DNA of 64,000 nucleotides from NCBI GenBank assembly GCA_051439605.1, contig JBFRWN010000065.1:1-64000 (forward strand), read 5' to 3'. Each line of letters begins with the position of its first letter. Within the stretch, counting starts at the first letter, position 1. Source of the DNA: Synechococcus sp. GTDB lineage: Bacteria > Cyanobacteriota > Cyanobacteriia > Thermostichales > PCC-7336. The translations under genes and the position numbers were made by a program. The notes beneath the pieces were generated by a model. It had not been told where the DNA came from, ran no database searches, and saw nothing but the letters and a program-made list of their open reading frames with translations. Positions 8,522 to 18,554 of the stretch are shown here, piece after piece.

Positions 8522-9718
8522 TCAGTTCCCAGTGCTGGGATACACCCGTCCCTTCCAGGCTCCCCCCTTTCCCTGCCAGTGCTGCAGAGCAGAATCCACC
8601 GTCATCAAGGTATAGAGAAACGCGATCGCCGGTAGCGTCAAGGCCCACAGCGGTGACTGGTGATAGAACTTCAGGGTGGGCCAGTAGGAGAGTGCCATCA
8701 GTCCCCAGGTGGCGGCAGCAGCGATGGCAGCCATCCACTGATGGGCAAGCAAGCTCCACACCAGTCCAATCGGAGCCACCAGATAAATCAAGGTCATGGC
8801 CAACAGTGTTCCCAGCAGCAATAGGGTGGAGTAGTTCAGCTGGGTGAAGGCGGTGCGGGCCACCATTTTCCAAACGGTGTTCAAATCGGAATAGGGGCGC
8901 AAACTCACGATGTCAGAGCCCAACCCCAGCCAGATGCGGCTTTTGCCATCGGGGGTATCGGGGGACGGACTTTCCTTAACTTTTGCCGCCAGCGTACAGT
9001 CATCGATTAACGCTTCCTTCAGACAGCCCATACCACCAATCCGTTGCAGAGCCGCGCTGCGAATCAGAATGCAACCCCCCGCCGCCCCCGCCATATTCCG
9101 ATTGGGGTTATTCACCCAGCGGAAGGGGTAGAGCTTCATAAAAAAGAAGATGAAGGCGGGAATCAAGAACCGTTCCCAAGTGCTTTCGCAGCGCAGCCGT
9201 ACCATTACCGAGGCCATATCCAATTGCCGAGCAGTGGCCAATGCCATCAGCCGCCTCAAGTTCAGGGGGTCGTGCCGGATATCCGCATCTGTCAGCAGAA
9301 TGTAGTCCGGGTTGTAGTTGGCGATCGCAAACTGCGTCCCCTGCTCCATGGCCCACAGCTTTCCAGTCCAACCCGGCGGTAAGTCTTGCCCCGAGAGGAT
9401 TTCAAGCTGCCGATCGCCTCCAACCTCGTCCGCCGCTGCCCGCGCAATTTCCCCCGTACCATCCGAGCTTTGATCGTCCACCAAGACAATTTTCAGGTCA
9501 CCTGGGTATTCTTGCTCCAGCAGCGCCCGCACGGTGATACCGATTGTTTCCGCCTCATCTCGGGCGGGAATCACGGCGCACACAGAAGGCCATTCTGGTG
9601 GTTCAGGAAGATTGTCTTTGAGCTGTTGATCGGCGGTCCAAAACATTCCCCGCAGGGTAAGCAGGCCCACCCAGATGACCAGCGATAACAAGATGATGCC
9701 CAATGCGATCGCGCTCAT
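8522..9718 (-). CDS. hpnB: Hopene-associated GT2 glycosyltransferase
   Basis: IPARDEA, VDDQSSDGT, LPPGWTGKLWA, LTDADI, ALIDDC, WKMVARTAFTQL, GGAWKGR; divergent from shc. Confidence 0.85.
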   Translation of the reverse strand: MSAIALGIILLSLVIWVGLLTLRGMFWTADQQLKDNLPEPPEWPSVCAVIPARDEAETIGITVRALLEQEYPGDLKIVLVDDQSSDGTGEIARAAADEVGGDRQLEILSGQDLPPGWTGKLWAMEQGTQFAIANYNPDYILLTDADIRHDPLNLRRLMALATARQLDMASVMVRLRCESTWERFLIPAFIFFFMKLYPFRWVNNPNRNMAGAAGGCILIRSAALQRIGGMGCLKEALIDDCTLAAKVKESPSPDTPDGKSRIWLGLGSDIVSLRPYSDLNTVWKMVARTAFTQLNYSTLLLLGTLLAMTLIYLVAPIGLVWSLLAHQWMAAIAAAATWGLMALSYWPTLKFYHQSPLWALTLPAIAFLYTLMTVDSALQHWQGKGGAWKGRVYPSTGN

Positions 9719-9838
9719 GTTGGCAAAGTTCGGTGTTGTTCACGCTCAACCCTACAATGTCAGCATCCGTTCGAAAACTTGAAGAAACCTGAGACTGTCG
9801 TCCAGCCAGTCTCATCGGTGCAGAGGAGTGACCCGTTC

Positions 9839-11770
9839 ATGCAAACTCAGGACAGACCCGCAGCAACAAAAAGCTTGGCGGACACGATTGCTGCCAGTCA
9901 CGAGTATTTACTCTCGCAGCAGGACGAGGAAGGGTACTGGTGGGCAGAACTGGAGTCCAACGTCACCATCACCGTTGAGGTGTTGCTGCTCCACAAAATT
10001 TGGGGCACAGCCAGCGATCGTCCCGTTCATAAAATCGAGTCGTATTTGCGCCAGCAGCAGCGGAACCACGGCGGTTGGGAGCTATATTTTGGCGATGGTG
10101 GCGAGCTAAGTACCTCTGTGGAAGCCTACATGGGTCTGCGTCTGTGTGGCGTCCCGGCGAATGACCCAGCTTTGCTGAAGGCCAAAGACTTTATTCTGGC
10201 TAGGGGTGGCATCAGCAAAACCCGCATCTTCACCAAATTCCATCTAGCCCTGATTGGCTGTTACGACTGGAAGGGGCTGCCCTCGATTCCGCCCTGGATT
10301 ATGTTCCTGCCGGAATGGGGACCGTTTACGATTTACGACATGTCCAGTTGGGCGCGAGGCAGTACGGTGCCGCTGGCGATCGTGTTTGACCGCAAGCCGG
10401 TGTACGACGTCAATCCGCAGTTCGATATGAAGGAGCTGTACGCCGAAGGATACTTCAACGCTAAATTCGAGCTGCCCAAGAACAACGACTGGTCGGATAT
10501 CTTCGTCCACCTCGACAGCGTCTTCAAGCTGGGAGAAACCCTAGGGCTAGTGCCCCTGCGGGAAGAAGGTCTGCGGGAAGCGGAAAAGTGGGTGCTGGAG
10601 CGGCAGGAAGCAACGGGTGACTGGGGGGGCATTATCCCCGCCATGCTCAACTCTATGTTGGCCCTGAAAGCTCTGGATTATGACCTCCGTGACCCAATTG
10701 TCGATCGTGGCATGAAAGCCATCGATAACTTTGCGATCGAGCATGAAAACGACTACCACATCCAGCCCTGTATCTCCCCCATTTGGGATACTGCTTGGGT
10801 GGTGCGGGCAATGGCAGAGTCCGGATGCGATCGCGACCATCCCAAGTTAGTGCAGGCCACTCAATGGCTGATTGACAAGCAAATCTTGGATTACGGCGAC
10901 TGGATCGTGAAAAATCCCCAGGCCAATCCCGGTGGCTGGGCGTTTGAATTCGACAACCGCTTTTACCCCGATCTGGATGATTCGGCGGTGGTGGTGATGG
11001 CCATCAACCAAATTGAGATGCCGAACGAGGCGTTGAAGCAGGGCTGCATCGATCGCGCCAATAGCTGGATGCAAACCATGCAGTGCAAACAGGGGGGCTG
11101 GGGTGCGTTCGATATCAACAACGATGCCGACTGGTTGAATAGCCTGCCCTATGGCGACCTCAAGGCCATGATTGACCCCAATACGGCAGATGTGACCGCC
11201 CGCGTGTTGGAGATGCTGGGGGAGTGCAATCTGACGATGGAAGTCGGTCGGGTGGATCGGGCGATCGCGTACTTGAAGGGAGAGCAGGAGGCAGACGGTA
11301 GCTGGTTTGGTCGCTGGGGGGTGAATTATATCTACGGCACCAGTGGGGCTTTGTCGGCATTTGCCCAGCTGCGACCGGAAGAACATCAGAACGAGCTGCT
11401 GCGGGGGGCGGCTTGGCTGGTGAAGTATCAGAACGAAGATGGTGGCTGGGGGGAAACCTGCGACAGCTATCGCGATCCGGAATTGCGCGGTCAGGGGGAT
11501 AGCACGGCGTCTCAGACGGCTTGGTCCCTGATCGGTTTACTAGCAGTAGGGCACGCCACAGGGAAGTGGGAGCCTGAGGTTTTGCGTCGCGGCGTACAGT
11601 ACCTGATAGACACCCAAAGGGAAGATGGCACGTGGGATGAGGACTGGTTTACCGGCACCGGCTTCCCCCAACATTTCTACCTGAAGTACCACTACTATCA
11701 GCAGTATTTCCCACTGTTGGCGTTGGGTCGCTATCAAACTGCTTGCAAGGAAGTTCCTGAGTTAGTTTGA
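9839..11770 (+). CDS. shc: Squalene-hopene cyclase
   Basis: Catalytic YPDLDDSA (DxDD) motif, QW repeats, FTGTGFP; GAGGAG RBS before ATG 9839. Confidence 0.97.
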   Translation: MQTQDRPAATKSLADTIAASHEYLLSQQDEEGYWWAELESNVTITVEVLLLHKIWGTASDRPVHKIESYLRQQQRNHGGWELYFGDGGELSTSVEAYMGLRLCGVPANDPALLKAKDFILARGGISKTRIFTKFHLALIGCYDWKGLPSIPPWIMFLPEWGPFTIYDMSSWARGSTVPLAIVFDRKPVYDVNPQFDMKELYAEGYFNAKFELPKNNDWSDIFVHLDSVFKLGETLGLVPLREEGLREAEKWVLERQEATGDWGGIIPAMLNSMLALKALDYDLRDPIVDRGMKAIDNFAIEHENDYHIQPCISPIWDTAWVVRAMAESGCDRDHPKLVQATQWLIDKQILDYGDWIVKNPQANPGGWAFEFDNRFYPDLDDSAVVVMAINQIEMPNEALKQGCIDRANSWMQTMQCKQGGWGAFDINNDADWLNSLPYGDLKAMIDPNTADVTARVLEMLGECNLTMEVGRVDRAIAYLKGEQEADGSWFGRWGVNYIYGTSGALSAFAQLRPEEHQNELLRGAAWLVKYQNEDGGWGETCDSYRDPELRGQGDSTASQTAWSLIGLLAVGHATGKWEPEVLRRGVQYLIDTQREDGTWDEDWFTGTGFPQHFYLKYHYYQQYFPLLALGRYQTACKEVPELV

Positions 11771-12166
11771 CCCTCCTCAGCATTTTTTCGAAGCAACGAT
11801 CTAGCTCAGCATCTTAAAGTCACCGAGTCTATTTTTCTGAGCTTGATTTTGTTCGATCGAACCCACACATTAAAACCAGCATGTCGCGAGAGGGCTCCGA
11901 TCGAAGGGCATGCCTCTCCGTCGGCAAACGGTACATGTCGAGAGGCATTCTGTACTGACAAAACGAGCTGTTCTCTAAAAACCGAATTCTGGAGGAAGGT
12001 GCGATCGTTTCGCACTAATTCACGAAATTTGAGTGAAAAACTGCATAACTGCAGCTGAGCTAGGGATAGGTTTACATGTCCGCATCAGTCCCTCACAATG
12101 TCTACGTTGGTGAGACAATTGAGCTTTACCATCGATGCTCAAGCACTAAAGCGATCGCCGATCTAT

Positions 12167-13672
12167 ATGGGCTCTGCCTCTCGATATTGGAGGTTCGTGC
12201 GGATTGATGCTGCAGGGAAGCGCAAGATTGATAGTCTTGCGCCTGTAAAAACATTCTTTCAGCAACAGTTTGCCGACTCTATCTATCAGCTCAACGTGTC
12301 TGATGAAGACGCTCAATGTCGTTTGGTGCAATGGATGCGCGGGGGGGACGGGACAGGTTATGTCGATCGCGCGAGGTTTGCTGAAATCTGTTTGCGCTGT
12401 TTTATCTCTAACGCGATCGAGCAGGTGTGCGTTCAGCTCGAGAAACAATTTGGCAGCAAGCATGGGTTTTCCCGCTACGACCTGTTTCCGTTTGTCTTAG
12501 ACGACACGAATCCCCTGAGGGACAACTATGTCCAGCGAGACAGACCCCCTCTACCAGACACAGTTTCAATCGGGCGTTCTCGTCCCCTAGGGGAAACTCA
12601 GTCCGTCGAAAGCTACCGATCCTCCATTGACGATATCCTGCAAAACTTTGACCCCGAACGGGGCAGCCTCACCACATGGACCGTGCGTCTGGTCCGTCGC
12701 CATCGGGAACTGAATGCCTATCTGTTGGAATGTGGCGTTTACCTGATTAGCGACTGGGCCATTTTGAACGACACTAGTCCACAACAGGTGAGACGCATCC
12801 TCTCAGACTTTCACACTCTGACTGAGGGGGAAATTGTCATGGCATCCACGTTGCTGGCTGCCTTCCATGCGGTGTATCGCCAAGATCGATTGGAGCAACG
12901 TCGGACAGGGAGCACAGGTCGTTGCCACCCACCCTCTGAGCCGCAGCTGCGACGGATGGCGGATTTTATACTGGAAAGGAGTCAAGCTCCCAAGCAGCAA
13001 ACGCTGGGGAATGCGGCTCCCAGCAGATTATTGAGCCTGTTACAGGAATTGGCGGAACGGCTGCGGCAATATCGCATCCACGCCCGTGGAGGACCTGCTC
13101 CCGCGGATCCTCTAGATGGGAATAGCGTTCGAGAACTGCAGTTGGAGGATACTCGTCACCACAATGACGAGCGTGAAGAGCAGAGTGAGTTTTTGACCTT
13201 CTACCGCCAACAATTCTCCCACTGTATGGATCGAGCGATCGCCGATACCATCGAGCGCTGGGTCACCACCCTACAGCGAAAAAAAACTCCAAAACATCAA
13301 CAGTTTTTGCAGGCGCTGGCTTTGTTTCACGAGCAAGGACTCTCTATGGGGGAGATTGCTCCTAAGGTGGGGCTCCAAGCCCAATACCAGGTATCGCGAC
13401 TGCTCAAGCTCAAAGAGCTGCGGGCTGACATTCGTCAATCGTTGTTGCTGGAGCTCCGGGAGCGCGTCATGAAAAAGGCGGGAGATTACCACAGCGATTT
13501 GGGGCAGCTACAGGCGATGGATCGCAAAATCGAAGCCGCCCTCTCCGAACAGGTGGATAACATTTTGCACGAGGCAGCAGCAGAAGCCAGCGTTGCCCAG
13601 AGATCTCCAGTCCGCAGCCTATATACCCGCCGTCTCTGCCAATATTTGAATTCCAGGAGCCAGACCCCATGA
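12167..13672 (+). CDS. Sigma-70-like/HTH regulatory protein of the type found upstream of DUF1822 genes (alternative start 12098)
   Basis: Region-2-like FDPERGSLTTWT and C-terminal HTH-like LFHEQGLSMGEIAPKVGLQAQYQVSRLL; ATGA overlap with the next gene. Confidence 0.65.
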   Translation: MGSASRYWRFVRIDAAGKRKIDSLAPVKTFFQQQFADSIYQLNVSDEDAQCRLVQWMRGGDGTGYVDRARFAEICLRCFISNAIEQVCVQLEKQFGSKHGFSRYDLFPFVLDDTNPLRDNYVQRDRPPLPDTVSIGRSRPLGETQSVESYRSSIDDILQNFDPERGSLTTWTVRLVRRHRELNAYLLECGVYLISDWAILNDTSPQQVRRILSDFHTLTEGEIVMASTLLAAFHAVYRQDRLEQRRTGSTGRCHPPSEPQLRRMADFILERSQAPKQQTLGNAAPSRLLSLLQELAERLRQYRIHARGGPAPADPLDGNSVRELQLEDTRHHNDEREEQSEFLTFYRQQFSHCMDRAIADTIERWVTTLQRKKTPKHQQFLQALALFHEQGLSMGEIAPKVGLQAQYQVSRLLKLKELRADIRQSLLLELRERVMKKAGDYHSDLGQLQAMDRKIEAALSEQVDNILHEAAAEASVAQRSPVRSLYTRRLCQYLNSRSQTP

Positions 13673-15075
13673 TGTACGACTCCACTACGACCAATTTTTC
13701 GTTAGATTTTGAGGGCATTCCTGCAGCTGGAGTACAGTTGCGCCCCTCCAGCATTCAGCAAGCGGGGAAAATCGGGCAGTCAGCTATTGGGGAAGAGCAG
13801 CAGTGGTCTGTCTATCTCCAAGCTTTGGCTCTGTTTGGATTTGAAGACTGGCTTAGGGACAGCAGTTGCCCGCTTGCGCTGCAATCTGAGCAGTGTACGA
13901 CTCTACTGCCGTCCTTTGCTAACTTACTCTCGGCTGCCTGCAATCTAAAGGTTGGAGATTTCACCCTCTGCTTGGTCCCCATCGGAAGCTTGGGAGAGCG
14001 CTGGGTGAACCTTCCGTGGGCGGCGATCGAGTTGCCGGGATTTGCGGCCCATTTCTACGTCTTAGTGGAGGTACTAGAAGACTGCGATAGCAGCCAGATA
14101 TTAGGGGCAATCCCTCGCAACCTGCTGCTCGAACGTGTCAACAGCATGGCCAGTCCCGAGACTGAGGGCAATGCTGTCACCACTGATGCAGGCTCCGATC
14201 GAGGGGATTGGTCCTGTCGCATCCCTGTCGATTGGTTCAGCTTTGGCAGCGAAGATCTACTCCTGTGGTTGCGAGCAGCTAATGCCAACCTGCTTTCTCC
14301 GCCCAACTCTTCTGCTCATCTTTCCCCCAACCAGCACTCTGCTCTCCAGCCCATCACCGAGCAGTTGCGGGCAAGACTCCTCCAGCTACAGCCTCAACTG
14401 GCCCACAAGCCCATCTGGCAGTTTCTGAATTGGGAGCAGGGTCAATATCTAATGCAAAATCCGGGATGGGTCAACTGGTTATATCTAGTCGCCAGCGGAG
14501 CCACCAATCCCGTCATACCCTCAGAACAAGTACCCGAGGTTAATACCCCGAGCTTCGGCGAGCAAGCCCTTAATGTTGGACTGTGGCTGCAGGAGCGCAT
14601 GGACGCAGTTGCCGAAGAGTTGGCCTGGGTGTTGATGCCCCCTCTGTCTCCGCAAATGCGTGCGGTTCAAGAGGATGTGGACGCTATCGTGGGCGAGCTC
14701 GAACGGGACGGTATCTTGGTACCCACCCCTGCTCGCGGTGCCTATCTCCCCCTGCAATGGTCTGAACTGAACTTAAGGCTCTATGCCTTTACCTGGGCCC
14801 ATCTATCCTCAGGCAACGTGCCCGAATGGACTTTACTTTTGGTGTTAGGGCCACAACCCGGTCAAGCGCTCCCCCCAGACACCCGACTGCTGGTTAGGGA
14901 TGCATTGCAGCTCTTAGTCGAGCAGACCTCATCCCCCGAATTGGATGAGAGCTACCTCTACGCCCACGTGGTGGGGACTTGGGAAGAACAATTCTGGGTC
15001 ACGATTGAGGGGAATGCCTCTCAGCCCGACTCGGCAATTTCTCTTCCCCCTTTCAGTTTCAGCCCAGCGTCGTAA
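13669..15075 (+). CDS. DUF1822 family protein
   Basis: YLQALAL.GFEDWL, CNLKVGDF.LCL, AHFYVLVEV.E and C-terminal LLLVLGP...LP....L.V.D...YLYA.VVG..EEQF.VTI. Confidence 0.8.
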   Translation: MMYDSTTTNFSLDFEGIPAAGVQLRPSSIQQAGKIGQSAIGEEQQWSVYLQALALFGFEDWLRDSSCPLALQSEQCTTLLPSFANLLSAACNLKVGDFTLCLVPIGSLGERWVNLPWAAIELPGFAAHFYVLVEVLEDCDSSQILGAIPRNLLLERVNSMASPETEGNAVTTDAGSDRGDWSCRIPVDWFSFGSEDLLLWLRAANANLLSPPNSSAHLSPNQHSALQPITEQLRARLLQLQPQLAHKPIWQFLNWEQGQYLMQNPGWVNWLYLVASGATNPVIPSEQVPEVNTPSFGEQALNVGLWLQERMDAVAEELAWVLMPPLSPQMRAVQEDVDAIVGELERDGILVPTPARGAYLPLQWSELNLRLYAFTWAHLSSGNVPEWTLLLVLGPQPGQALPPDTRLLVRDALQLLVEQTSSPELDESYLYAHVVGTWEEQFWVTIEGNASQPDSAISLPPFSFSPAS

Positions 15076-15079
15076 AGCT

Positions 15080-17788
15080 ATGCCTCTTTCCTCTGGTACC
15101 TACATAGCCAACAGCTACGGGAATAGGAGGGGAACCTTTCGCGCTTCAACCTCTGCGATCGCCTATCGGCTGAAAATCCAGCAGTTGCACAATGTCTGTT
15201 TCTTTCAGCTGACTTGGGGTATCAGCCAACAACTGTCAGCTGCTCTGGCGTATCCCAAGGGAATAACAACGGCCTACGAAGAATGGAGGCGCGCTTATCT
15301 CAGTTTCTACAACAAGTCCGTCTGTGCAGCTCCTGAACTCAAGCCGATCTCCCAACCTGACAGCGGAGGAGACCCCCCTTCCCAAGGAATGTCATCCCCA
15401 GAACAGGACAAGGGAAAAGGTCAGTTGTCGCCCTTTCGTAAAACCCTAGACCCTCGTCAGTCCGGTTCTGACCCAAAGTCTCCTATGCGCGGGCGCGTCG
15501 CCGCCTCAGGGCGGCTAAAGCCTGTTACCAACGATCGCCAAGCTCGGCTAGCTAAAGCGGAAGCCAACCTCTTGCACCAATTTCAGCGCTGGTTGCGCAG
15601 TTCAGAACTCTATGAAATTCGAGCAGAAATTGCTCGCGCCGCCCGAGAGTCAGGGGAAAATGCCGACGGTCAAAATCCACAACCCATCGACCTCGTCCTT
15701 ACCTGCAGTCCTACCGACCTCGAACGGCTGCCTTGGGAAACTTGGGAAATTGGGGAGGAGCTGGCATCCTCCAGCAACATACGCATCAGTCGCTGTCCCC
15801 TGAACGTGCGGCGGGAAGCCTTCAAAATTCCACAACACCGGAAAAGCCGCATGCGGGTATTGGCCATCATGGGGGACGATCGGGGGCTGGACTTTGAAGT
15901 CGATCGCAAAGCTGTATCCCGTCTGGCTCCGATCGCAGACATCCAGTATTTAGGCTATCGACCCGGCATCTCTCCGGCTGCACTCAAGGCGGACATTGTC
16001 GCCACGATTGACGACGATCGCGGCTGGGATATTCTCTTTTTTGCCGGTCACAGCACTGAGGCAGACATCGTGGAAGGGGACTTATCCATTGCCCCCAACA
16101 CCGTTCTATCCATTAAAGATCTCGTGCCCTACCTTCAGCGGGCCTGCAAGCGGGGGCTGCAGTTTGCCATTTTCAACTCATGCAGTGGTTTAGGTCTGGC
16201 CCGGACTTGTATTGATGCCGGCTTAAGCCAAGTCGCCATTGCGCGGGAGCCCATCCACAATCAAGTGGCACAGGAGTTTTTGGTGTGTTTGCTACAACAG
16301 CTCTCGGCGGGGGCGGATGCCCATGACGCCGTTCGGGCTGCCAGTCGATGGTTCAAGCTGGAGAAAAATTTTACGTATCCGTCCGCCTATCTGCTGCCTT
16401 CGTTTTTCAGGCATCCCGACACAGCACTCTTTCAACTGGAATCCCTCACCCTCCAGCAGAAGCTAGTCCAGCTGTTGCCCAATCGCTCTCAGGCGATTGT
16501 GGCCGCGGTGGTGGCGATCGCCAGTTTGCTGCCAGGGGTTCAAGATGGATTGTTGCAAAATCGGACATTTGCTCAGGCTGTCTATCGAGATATAACCGGC
16601 CAAGTGCCGGCAACCACCACTCCCCCTGTTCTGTTAGTGCAAATCGAACGGGAGTCGATTGCTCGGGCCAATATGGCCGACCCTTACCCCATGGATCGAC
16701 AGTATTTGGCCAGTCTGGTCGAACGCCTGAGTGCCGCCGCCTTTCCTGCCATAGGTATTGACTATCTGCTCGATCGCCCCCAAGCCAATAACGATGAAGT
16801 GTTTGCCAACTCTGTGCGGCAGGCGGTGGAGGAACGGGGGTCATGGATGGTGCTGGCTGCCATCAGCCGCTACTACTCTTCCGCTGCCGCCAGGGACATT
16901 GCCCCGTTGGAATGGACACTGCGGGGGGATATTTTCTCCTACCCTAATTACATCAAGCTGCCTTGGCGCGGGGCCTGCTACGAGCAAACCTGCCCCTTTG
17001 CCTATGTTCTAGCCCTGTCTTATACCCTCAGTCAGGAACCCCTCAGCTTCAACCGACTGGTTCCCCATCCTAGTAGTGATGCGTATTTGCAAGCCCAGCT
17101 GGTGGATACCGTTCACAGCATTTCTGCACCGGGGAGCCCCACCAGACGACTGGCCAACCTCCACAAATCCCCCATTACCGAAGTCTCCAATTTCATCGGT
17201 CAGCTGTGGATGCAGCCGATTCTGGACTTTTCATTGCCCTCCGACTTGATTTATGAAACCGTACCCGCATGGCAAGTGCTCTCTGGTGAAGCAGATTTCG
17301 CCGCTAGTCAGCGCCAAATCGCCTTGATTGCGCCTGGAGGATATACGGAATCAGGTATCGGTGCGCCAGACTACTACGATGTACCGGCAGCGATGGAGTA
17401 TTGGCGCAATCGTCAGGGGAAGCAGGAGGAGGTCAATAGCGATCGCCCTGTTCTAGAAAGCGAGCATGTCTATACGGGAGCTGAAGCCCATGCATATAGC
17501 ATTCACCACCTGCTGAAAGGGCATTTGGTCATTCCGATTCCCGACCTGTGGATGGTGGGACTAGCACTGTTAGGAGGCAAGTGCTTGAGCTTGTGGATGA
17601 TTCGCCAACGGAGACAATCCCCAGAACGGATGCTGGCGCTGCGCTACCTAGGCGTCGGTACGGTAGCCTATACCCTGATAGTCCTGCAACTTTACATTTC
17701 GGCGGCTGTGGTGCTACCCGTTATCCTCCCCTCTCTGGCCATTTGGACCTTTGCCCTGCAGTCATTTAGGAGAACCCTACGTGATTAA
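15080..17788 (+). CDS. CHAT (caspase-family) protease fused to a CHASE2 sensor domain; membrane protein
   Basis: LPWETW, ILFFAGHS (His codon 16049), FNSCSG (Cys codon 16181), REPIHN.VA.EF; one TM; CHASE2 motifs MDRQYLA.LVE.L, IGIDYLLDRP, GAEAHAY; C-terminal TM helices. Confidence 0.88.
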   Translation: MPLSSGTYIANSYGNRRGTFRASTSAIAYRLKIQQLHNVCFFQLTWGISQQLSAALAYPKGITTAYEEWRRAYLSFYNKSVCAAPELKPISQPDSGGDPPSQGMSSPEQDKGKGQLSPFRKTLDPRQSGSDPKSPMRGRVAASGRLKPVTNDRQARLAKAEANLLHQFQRWLRSSELYEIRAEIARAARESGENADGQNPQPIDLVLTCSPTDLERLPWETWEIGEELASSSNIRISRCPLNVRREAFKIPQHRKSRMRVLAIMGDDRGLDFEVDRKAVSRLAPIADIQYLGYRPGISPAALKADIVATIDDDRGWDILFFAGHSTEADIVEGDLSIAPNTVLSIKDLVPYLQRACKRGLQFAIFNSCSGLGLARTCIDAGLSQVAIAREPIHNQVAQEFLVCLLQQLSAGADAHDAVRAASRWFKLEKNFTYPSAYLLPSFFRHPDTALFQLESLTLQQKLVQLLPNRSQAIVAAVVAIASLLPGVQDGLLQNRTFAQAVYRDITGQVPATTTPPVLLVQIERESIARANMADPYPMDRQYLASLVERLSAAAFPAIGIDYLLDRPQANNDEVFANSVRQAVEERGSWMVLAAISRYYSSAAARDIAPLEWTLRGDIFSYPNYIKLPWRGACYEQTCPFAYVLALSYTLSQEPLSFNRLVPHPSSDAYLQAQLVDTVHSISAPGSPTRRLANLHKSPITEVSNFIGQLWMQPILDFSLPSDLIYETVPAWQVLSGEADFAASQRQIALIAPGGYTESGIGAPDYYDVPAAMEYWRNRQGKQEEVNSDRPVLESEHVYTGAEAHAYSIHHLLKGHLVIPIPDLWMVGLALLGGKCLSLWMIRQRRQSPERMLALRYLGVGTVAYTLIVLQLYISAAVVLPVILPSLAIWTFALQSFRRTLRD

Positions 17789-18554
17789 CCGTCAATGGAT
17801 GCGTTGCACAATCGCTGGCTGCGCGATGCTGGCGATCGCCACGGGACTAGCGAGCTATGCCCCCGTGGCTTGGGCTCAGGAGCCCCCCTCCCCAGCCCGC
17901 AATCAAGCGGACTCGAACTCGAATCGGGCAACCAATCGGGAAGGAGGCGAACGGTCTCAGCAGCGCTCTAGCCTCAGCTCTGCCCTCAATACTCTGCGTC
18001 AGAAACTAGAGCGCCAAGAACCTCCCTTGGGGTCTCGCGGGGCTCAGTGCGCTTATTCCCCTGGATTGGTGGGGGAGAATGACACTATTTGGAGCGATCG
18101 ACCCATCTTTCTTTGGCGAGCTGCCGGTCAGACCCTCAGCCTGTACGACTACGAGTCAGAGGTATTGCTCTGGCAACGGGACGTAGAAGCCGGCACTCAC
18201 TCTACCCTCTACGACGGCGAACCCCTCACCCCCGGTGGATTATACCGGTGGGAGCTCACTCATCCAGAGGCTTCGGACTTTAACGCCACCTTTGCGGTGA
18301 TGGACATCGCTACTCGGGAAACGTTGAATGCCGAGCTGGGGCAAGCGCAGGCCAATTGGAGTGACGCCGGTCTGACAGGGGCCGAGCTTGTGGTGGCGCG
18401 AGCAACCTTCTTTGGTGATCGCCGTCTGTGGTCCGACGCCCTCCAAGAGCTGCATTCGGCTCGCGATTTTGCAGAAGTGGAGGAGATGGTGACGGATATG
18501 TCCATTTACCTCTGCGGTGCATTTGAATCAGACTTACAGGCAGCAGCAGAGTAG
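17781..18554 (+). CDS. DUF928-like exported protein
   Basis: AGGAG + GTG at 17781 overlapping the previous stop; Sec signal peptide (AWA-Q); GSRG.C, IWSDRP.FLW, L.PG..Y.W, LWSDALQEL. Confidence 0.75.
   Translation: MINRQWMRCTIAGCAMLAIATGLASYAPVAWAQEPPSPARNQADSNSNRATNREGGERSQQRSSLSSALNTLRQKLERQEPPLGSRGAQCAYSPGLVGENDTIWSDRPIFLWRAAGQTLSLYDYESEVLLWQRDVEAGTHSTLYDGEPLTPGGLYRWELTHPEASDFNATFAVMDIATRETLNAELGQAQANWSDAGLTGAELVVARATFFGDRRLWSDALQELHSARDFAEVEEMVTDMSIYLCGAFESDLQAAAE

Follow-up and report, generated by a model that had tools for sequence, protein, structure and literature searches.

In type III-E CRISPR systems, the CHAT protease Csx29 reportedly cleaves the sigma-binding protein Csx30, and in the type III modules Csx29-Csx30-sigma and CalpL-CalpT-CalpS a protease is said to cut a sigma-binding protein, as we propose below, the trigger being target RNA or cyclic oligoadenylate in the cytoplasm. 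In Myxococcus xanthus, the membrane protein DdvA is reportedly itself the anti-sigma factor, with its CHAT domain in the periplasm. The sigma factor of this pair, DdvS, is of the extracytoplasmic function (ECF) type and is controlled by the membrane protein with involvement of the CHAT domain (PMC6061681). Here, we investigated a four-gene operon (genes 1 to 4) in a 64,000-nucleotide stretch of DNA from the cyanobacterium Synechococcus sp. (assembly GCA_051439605.1, contig JBFRWN010000065.1, positions 1 to 64,000, hereafter the window), which encodes a putative sigma-70-type factor, a DUF1822 protein, a putative CHAT protease with a CHASE2 domain, and a predicted exported protein of a DUF928 family. 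Unlike the type III CRISPR modules, the operon has no flanking cas genes, and unlike in DdvS/DdvA, the protease of gene 3 is predicted to be cytoplasmic and the proposed inhibitor, gene 2, to be soluble.

A close experimental precedent, missed by the first-pass annotation of the window, is the HetF-PatU3-HetZ system of Anabaena PCC 7120. HetF, whose protease faces the cytoplasm (PMC8406250, PMC9457339), cleaves PatU3 between R117 and S118, and mutation of R117 makes PatU3 resistant (PMC9457339). PatU3 inhibits HetZ, a proven sigma factor with three insertions (PMC13342950; neither “DUF1822” nor “HetF” occurs in the main text of that paper). Like HetF, gene 3 appears to encode a membrane-anchored cytoplasmic CHAT protease, and the two protease regions align; like PatU3, gene 2 has a conserved Arg (an Arg-Ser site in its family) about 140 residues from its end and is encoded right after an insertion-bearing sigma. 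HetF, however, has one transmembrane segment (TM) and periplasmic tetratricopeptide repeats (TPR) and is encoded apart, whereas gene 3 has CHASE2, accompanied by DUF928, in one operon. As an analogue, HetF-PatU3-HetZ is a better model for the operon than type III-E CRISPR.

The architecture itself is already in print. In Kaur et al. 2021 (PMC8195603), proteins of the EACC2+caspase+CHASE2 type are described whose genes adjoin those for an ECF sigma and DUF1822. The authors propose sensing, autopeptidase/caspase activation, and sigma output, and list nearly the same neighbourhood in Fischerella; section 9 and supplement 3 of that work refute the earlier statement that no functional description of such a circuit was known. 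Like these EACC2-caspase systems, gene 3 combines the constant N-terminal domain with a caspase domain, a TM, and CHASE2, and is adjoined by ECF-like sigma and DUF1822 genes. In its text and the supplements searched (12 of 13), the same work names no substrate or cleavage site, draws no link to HetF, PatU, or HetZ, marks the first gene of those rows “??”, and treats DUF1822 as a TPR protein, whereas the model of gene 2 shows no such repeats. Literature searches, to which most subscription papers were out of reach, found no paper that links DUF1822 to PatU or tests the operon. What the present analysis adds to Kaur et al. is the predicted site, R331 of gene 2, and the HetF-PatU-HetZ precedent, which together open the relay proposed below to a direct test.

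We propose, with a probability of roughly 0.55 and largely by analogy, a one-step protease/anti-sigma/sigma relay in which a sensor-gated cut of DUF1822 at R331 would free the gene 1 sigma. Gene 4 and the CHASE2 domain of gene 3 would form a sensor outside the cytoplasmic membrane, and the TM helices would relay its signal inward to the cytoplasmic EACC2-CHAT protease, whose dyad is intact. Conservation and analogy suggest that this protease would be Arg-specific and would cut gene 2 after Arg331, parting its beta-sandwich from the rest. Uncut DUF1822 would hold the gene 1 protein, for which a sigma fold is supported, and the cut would release it, so that it could guide RNA polymerase to promoters of its own. 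The logic would be that of HetF-PatU3-HetZ, with a CHASE2/DUF928 sensor in place of the periplasmic TPR of HetF and a single operon encoding every part. That the protease cuts DUF1822 and so frees the sigma had already been suggested by the first-pass annotation; the suggestion gains a precedent here and stays a conditional one.

Operon layout and conservation

The four open reading frames are co-oriented and, read directly from the sequence (limits in Table 1), are joined as first annotated, by an ATGA overlap between genes 1 and 2 (13669-13672), a 4-nt gap between genes 2 and 3 (15076-15079), and an 8-nt overlap between genes 3 and 4 (17781-17788). Conservation was counted in the best 80 of 376 loci with gene 1 relatives found in a scan of species genomes; because close kin are among these loci, the counts are not independent events. 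DUF1822 follows gene 1 immediately in 72 of the 73 loci with room for it (7 of the 80 were too short). Where 1.5 kb or more of sequence followed DUF1822 (64 loci), the gene 3 homolog came next in 34, came after an insert in 9 (7 of these inserts being TPR or TPR-CHAT genes), and was not seen in 21; DUF928 stands directly after the gene 3 homolog in 37 of 39. The co-occurrence of the four families is therefore borne out, and the four-gene order is more than chance because the same order recurs in many genomes. We conclude that the four-gene operon is real and conserved and that it is a variant form of EACC2-caspase system. Among named relatives of gene 1, the closest is from Synechococcus sp. 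PCC 7336 (62% identity). In an even sample of the phylum, the gene 1 profile matches 17 of 151 genomes, some of which carry up to four copies, and DUF1822 matches 98 of the 151.

The 21 loci without gene 3 downstream raise the alternative of two separable modules that are often found together, one pairing the sigma with DUF1822 and the other a CHAT-CHASE2/DUF928 sensor protease that acts on a different substrate, in which case another cellular CHAT protease may cut gene 2. Several other DUF1822 loci that have no adjoining CHAT gene would fit this arrangement, as would the second EACC2-CHAT protein of the source genome, but gene 3 is close in 43 of the 64 loci and a full-length homolog of it is kept elsewhere in 9 of the 10 genomes searched out of the 21. 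The pairwise distances of the four proteins also correlate (Spearman 0.63-0.74 across 34 loci), a correlation that may reflect shared ancestry because it has no housekeeping control. We regard such a split as quite improbable.

Because the source genome (99.98% complete) gave no match to hetZ or patU, and none to hetF either in a search whose controls also gave none, the relay proposed for this genome would not serve heterocyst formation. The genes flanking the operon vary between related loci; here, they are a squalene-hopene cyclase gene on one side and a convergent aspartate carbamoyltransferase gene on the other. Directly upstream (8522-11770 of the window), the squalene-hopene cyclase gene is paired with a divergent glycosyltransferase family 2 gene (hopanoid synthesis), and this adjacency to the operon is not kept elsewhere. 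Promoter and terminator scans of the operon gave no excess over shuffled sequence, and one metatranscriptome, which contained 8% of the words and yielded 15 low-depth contigs of a relative, one of them spanning the gene 2/3 junction, gave no evidence of transcription.

Several other gene families were seen around DUF1822. The gene immediately behind DUF1822 in loci L014, L017-L019, L023, L026, L028, L044, L070, and L073 encodes a TPR protein of 360-450 aa that looks cytoplasmic and might link protease to substrate as an adaptor. In 10 of the 80 loci (L008, L012, L013, L031 from Acaryochloris marina, L056, L062, L067, L069, L072, L080), genes for two-partner secretion (TPS domain) are found close to the operon. 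Upstream of DUF1822 and CHAT genes, a short gene family (213-269 aa; L137:1376-2044, L138:799-1464, L140:746-1387, L143-L146, L148), without an NCBIfam match in the two members tested, is possibly a still more divergent sigma. Of 57 small genomes (~2 Mb) in family f24, 49 have a single weak match to DUF1822 (E 1e-5 to 1e-11), which may represent a nuclease-like domain on its own.

The protease, its predicted substrate, and the exported protein

CHASE2 is an extracytoplasmic sensor that is usually fused to cyclases or kinases. In gene 3, Pfam detects CHAT at residues 273-430 (35.8 bits, above the cut-off) and CHASE2 (60 bits), and finds no kinase or cyclase domain; no output domain follows CHASE2 and the TMs. 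Hydropathy gives one TM ahead of CHASE2 (modest, 1.67) and three overlapping segments at the C-terminal end. Because gene 3 lacks an N-terminal signal and has a single TM ahead of CHASE2 and three behind it, its protease should face the cytoplasm, as in HetF, and CHASE2 should face the outside, as is usual for this domain. The presumed catalytic residues (H324 in FAGHS and C368 in FNSCS) are kept in all 39 homologs. The same 39 also share D266 and have Asp or Glu at 275, two acidic positions that would suit an Arg-binding pocket. Both the intact His/Cys pair and the order of one TM, CHASE2, and further TMs with no kinase or cyclase agree with the first reading of this gene. Compared with HetF (proteins identified by NF045509), the gene 3 profile aligns over the protease region with a probability of 95% (E 2e-8) and with the dyads in register, while the HetF equivalog NF045509 itself gave no match for gene 3 at E<=0.1. 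The name EACC2 for the N-terminal domain rests on the published description; the profile of this domain also matches the N-termini of further CHAT proteins whose C-termini differ, among them L183, which carries a kinase (E 1.5e-12 when 64 proteins were compared).

This N-terminal domain holds a conserved Arg-Gly pair, R137-G138, with the Arg in 39 of 39 homologs and the Gly in 38 of 39, and in most of the other EACC2 proteins inspected by eye this loop also holds an Arg. The pair would fit a conflict or stress system of the kind that Kaur et al. describe, in which the sensor triggers self-cleavage of the EACC2-caspase at Arg137 and the freed cytoplasmic fragment acts on DUF1822 or on the sigma, DUF1822 not being the key substrate. 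Section 9 of PMC8195603 proposes autopeptidase activation, some gene 1 homologs are fused to CHAT+TRADD-N or AAA_35+TRADD-N, and the spread of gene 1 across the phylum is patchy, with several copies in some genomes. Self-cleavage, however, leaves the conservation of R331 in gene 2 unexplained. HetF, which among the relatives is the only one studied, acts on a separate protein, and self-cleavage could equally be an activation step within the relay that we propose. As the main event, we consider it unlikely.

Gene 2 is a DUF1822 protein (Pfam 114.5 bits, cut-off 25), and its model (pLDDT, the predicted local distance difference test, 85) comprises an N-terminal restriction-endonuclease-like fold, a helical middle, and a C-terminal Ig-like beta-sandwich. 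Residues 42-208 match I-Ssp6803I, a PD-(D/E)xK nuclease (2ost_A; Z 8.0, root-mean-square deviation (rmsd) 3.1, 117 aligned), and the beta-sandwich at 352-468 gives matches with Z about 6-7. The reading of DUF1822 as a TPR protein is unsupported, with no TPR in the gene 2 model and none by Pfam, and TRADD-N had no match in any of the 74 gene 2 homologs. Arg331 is the best-kept Arg of the protein, present in 73 of 74 homologs (runner-up 66 of 74) and followed by Ser in 52, and in the model it sits in a coil loop just before the last helix and the beta-sandwich. By analogy with PatU3, we predict that it is the scissile residue of DUF1822, the cut (|) falling at M-R|A here and at M/L-R|S in the family. 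In a wider DUF1822 set, an Arg occupies this place in 93 of 108 proteins and R-[S/G/A] in 70 of 108, against a background of 8%; some of the 15 misses carry insertions that shift the motif outside the range of positions used. Elsewhere in the same genome, contig C76 (52953-58094; L001, L183) carries a second module, composed of a sigma-70-type gene (418 aa), a DUF1822 gene with S-L-R-S-T at the predicted site, and a gene for an EACC2-CHAT-Ser/Thr kinase-TM protein (859 aa), which offers a built-in comparison for the specificity of the proteases.

Any resemblance of gene 2 to PatU is confined to the C-terminal third; that the two families share a C-terminal module was predicted beforehand and then tested. 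In an ESM Atlas search with gene 2 residues 290-468 from which DUF1822 clusters were excluded, the first two matches were PatU clusters (0.81). Enlarged DUF1822 and PatU profiles align over 150 columns with their R-S motifs in register (score 24.1, E 0.004; 13.8 for the reversed control and 14.9 for the best of 20 shuffles), and the beta-sandwich alone scores 20.4 vs 12.8. The conserved Arg is followed by 137 residues in gene 2 and by 138-157 in 32 PatU proteins; an Arg lies within two positions of the aligned place in 41 of 41 PatU proteins, as R-[S/G/A] in 40. None of the 120 PatU homologs listed has a Pfam label. A shared ancestry of DUF1822 and the C-terminal part of PatU is weakly suggested by the Atlas and profile comparisons, and DUF1822-labelled proteins with other N-terminal domains (TRADD-N, HTH, EAD4), listed in the supplement of PMC8195603, would fit a C-terminal module travelling on its own.

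The cut at Arg331 might also have another consequence, in that gene 2 could, instead of being an anti-sigma factor, serve as a co-activator or as a partner that binds nucleic acid, the cut switching on a nuclease-like domain that works together with gene 1. The N-terminal fold of gene 2, which has no detectable PatU equivalent, would suit this role, and PatU3 has been reported among RNA-binding proteins (PMC11797042). The strand positions inspected, however, have no conserved catalytic acidic residue or Lys (the pattern in the sequence columns is C91, N92, C101-A104), so that the fold is probably inactive and nuclease activity improbable, and both the gene order of sigma followed by partner and the PatU3 precedent favour inhibition. 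We hold this co-activator role to be rather unlikely.

Gene 4 was first read as an exported DUF928 protein. Export is supported by an N-terminal hydrophobic segment in gene 4 and in 37 of 37 family members (hydropathy only), while the DUF928 label holds at the level of the family, 24 of whose 37 members match PF06051 at E<=0.01 (best 5e-08), and not for gene 4 itself, which has no Pfam match. The family has a conserved S-R-G-x-x-C motif (R86 in 36 of 37, C90 in 35 of 37) and a second Cys (C245 in 34 of 37). A passage of PMC8195603 links CHASE2 and DUF928 genes and cites the acid-stress response of a DUF928 protein (PMC5587647). Contig C89 (28276-31612; L179) encodes a DUF928-like exported protein of 349 aa that has an R-P-G-G motif and weakly matches the gene 4 profile (E 7.5e-4); its neighbours are a TM-TPR-like gene on one side and, on the other, a CHAT gene truncated where the contig ends.

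The near-invariance of R86 hints at a speculative extension into two tiers, with an Arg-Gly/Ser site cut on either side of the membrane. A secreted TPR-CHAT protease would cut exported DUF928 at S-R|G-x-x-C, the product would switch CHASE2, and the cytoplasmic CHAT would cut DUF1822 at R|S to free the sigma. DUF1822 and PatU would then share an ancient C-terminal “CHAT-substrate” module, and HetF-PatU-HetZ would be one offshoot of a large caspase-sigma relay family that is also present without heterocyst genes. Genes with a C-terminal CHAT occur in 14 of the 80 loci (1.09 Mb; 6 are profile seeds), most of them with a signal-like N-terminus, against a background of about 1 per Mb (24 strong matches in 25 Mb of five other genomes) that may be too low because these genomes were picked for few DUF1822 genes. 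We rate the two-tier scheme as improbable. In the same genome, contig C39 (27726-32199) carries a gene for an 889-aa TPR-CHAT protein with a signal-like N-terminus, a candidate secreted protease, beside an exported-looking gene of 584 aa.

A sigma-70-type protein with insertions

The model of gene 1 (pLDDT 88) comprises an N-terminal extension, a sigma-2-like domain, a helical insertion, a sigma-4 helix-turn-helix (HTH), and a C-terminal helical extension. A longer start at an ATG at 12098 is possible (524 aa), while the family starts at the Met at 12167. The sigma-2-like domain matches domain 2 of SigA (Z 7.4, rmsd 3.6, 98 aligned) and contains FDPERGSLTTW, which we take to resemble the FDP..G..F.TY motif of sigma region 2. 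The insertion matches a SANT/Myb-like domain (Z 7.6, rmsd 3.5, 97 aligned), a lead only at Z <8, and the HTH matches AlgU (Z 5.2, rmsd 2.5, 73 aligned), with A398, Q406, V409, and R411 of this region invariant in 117 homologs. Sigma chains make up 14 of the top 21 fold matches.

Profile comparisons lead the same way. The gene 1 profile matches that of a family encoded upstream of other DUF1822 genes (98.7%, E 1.7e-16, 281 columns), of which four of four tested members pass the sigma-70 model TIGR02937, and ESM Atlas neighbours of gene 1 at 0.91-0.94 carry Sigma70_r4. Sigma regions 2 and 4 are thus present in the right order by profile and fold, each fold row being modest alone, and the region 2 segment and C-terminal HTH of the first-pass annotation are borne out by the 98.7% profile match and the fold rows. 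Gene 1 is best read as a sigma-70 branch with its own insertions that is so far without annotation. Homologs fused behind CHAT+TRADD-N or STAND-like AAA_35+TRADD-N modules (P0259, P0210, P0125) tie this family to the systems of Kaur et al. An apparent gene 1-DUF1822 fusion (P0206) departs from the family at the junction, may be a frameshift artefact, and was not used. Searches of PDB sequences with the profiles of genes 1, 3, and 4 returned no meaningful match, and no chain of the sigma HetZ was among the PDB sequence or fold matches of gene 1.

The large insertions could also point to a DNA-binding regulator that arose from a sigma factor and has lost the ability to recruit RNA polymerase. 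Gene 1 itself has no Pfam or NCBIfam match, and among 17 family members tested the best NCBIfam sigma scores stay below the cut-off, at most 18.6 bits vs 42.9 for the curated sigma model. Gene 1 nevertheless keeps regions 2 and 4 in the right order, and HetZ is a proven sigma despite its three insertions (PMC13342950); the loss of polymerase recruitment is very improbable.

Table 1. Features of the operon, with positions in the window
Feature	Position	Strand	Basis
Gene 1, putative sigma-70-type factor without Pfam or NCBIfam annotation, 501 aa	12167..13672	+	model pLDDT 88; fold and profile comparison
Sigma region 2-like domain, residues 46-190	12302..12736	+	fold match 4x8k_A; profile comparison
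Helical insertion, SANT/Myb-like, residues 193-310	12743..13096	+	fold match 1ofc_X
Sigma region 4-like helix-turn-helix, residues 343-427	13193..13447	+	fold match 8z6g_B (AlgU); profile comparison
Gene 2, DUF1822 protein, 468 aa; proposed anti-sigma and protease substrate	13669..15075	+	Pfam; model pLDDT 85
Arg331 codon of gene 2, predicted scissile residue	14659..14661	+	73/74 homologs; analogy with PatU3 R117|S118
Gene 3, EACC2-type N-terminal domain, CHAT, TM, CHASE2, and three TMs, 902 aa	15080..17788	+	
Arg137 of gene 3 (L/M-R-G), candidate self-cleavage or self-inhibition loop	15488..15490	+	39/39 homologs; conditional role
Predicted catalytic dyad of gene 3, His324 (16049-16051) and Cys368 (16181-16183)	16049..16183	+	39/39 homologs; alignment to HetF dyad
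TM (470-488), CHASE2 (476-833), and C-terminal TMs (823-883) of gene 3	16487..17728	+	Pfam; hydropathy
Gene 4, putative exported DUF928-family protein, 257 aa; R86 (18036-18038), second Cys C245	17781..18554	+	

Weight of the evidence and implications

Several observations weigh against the relay. Our analyses, based on sequences and models, do not demonstrate binding, cleavage, or transcription. The fold matches of genes 1 and 2 all have Z <=8.0, and those of gene 1 are all <8. Although sigma regions 2 and 4 stand in the top fold rows of gene 1, Foldseek gave no E<=0.001 for either model, its best row for gene 1 being sigma S at E 0.057. Gene 1 is not an ortholog of HetZ, with a HHalign probability of 2% over the HTH only and no NF037963 match in the genome, so that the analogy to HetF-PatU3-HetZ is one of logic and not of orthology. 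On the substrate side, the PatU score of 0.81 in the ESM Atlas falls below the lead threshold of 0.9, and the C-terminal alignment of DUF1822 with PatU has a HHalign probability of 8%, with the best of 36 control segments reaching 20.2 vs 24.1. Comparisons of whole-protein DUF1822 and PatU profiles found nothing (HHalign 0.1%), and searches with their hidden Markov models gave no significant cross-match in either direction, which rules out that DUF1822 is PatU over its full length. Gene 3 is not within reach downstream in 21 of the 64 loci, within a set that is the best 80 of 376 and includes close kin, and the invariant Arg-Gly at R137 fits self-cleavage as the main step.

If the relay operates as proposed, it would give a function to DUF1822 and to the gene 1 sigma family (694 clusters at 50% identity), and it would represent a receptor with a caspase-like protease as its output, not a kinase or cyclase. 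For engineering, such a cassette of sensor, protease, and sigma would offer a compact tool. A catalogued gene neighbourhood is now reduced to a one-residue question, that of R331, and the relay, if right, would suggest an origin for the HetF-PatU-HetZ switch that starts heterocyst formation.

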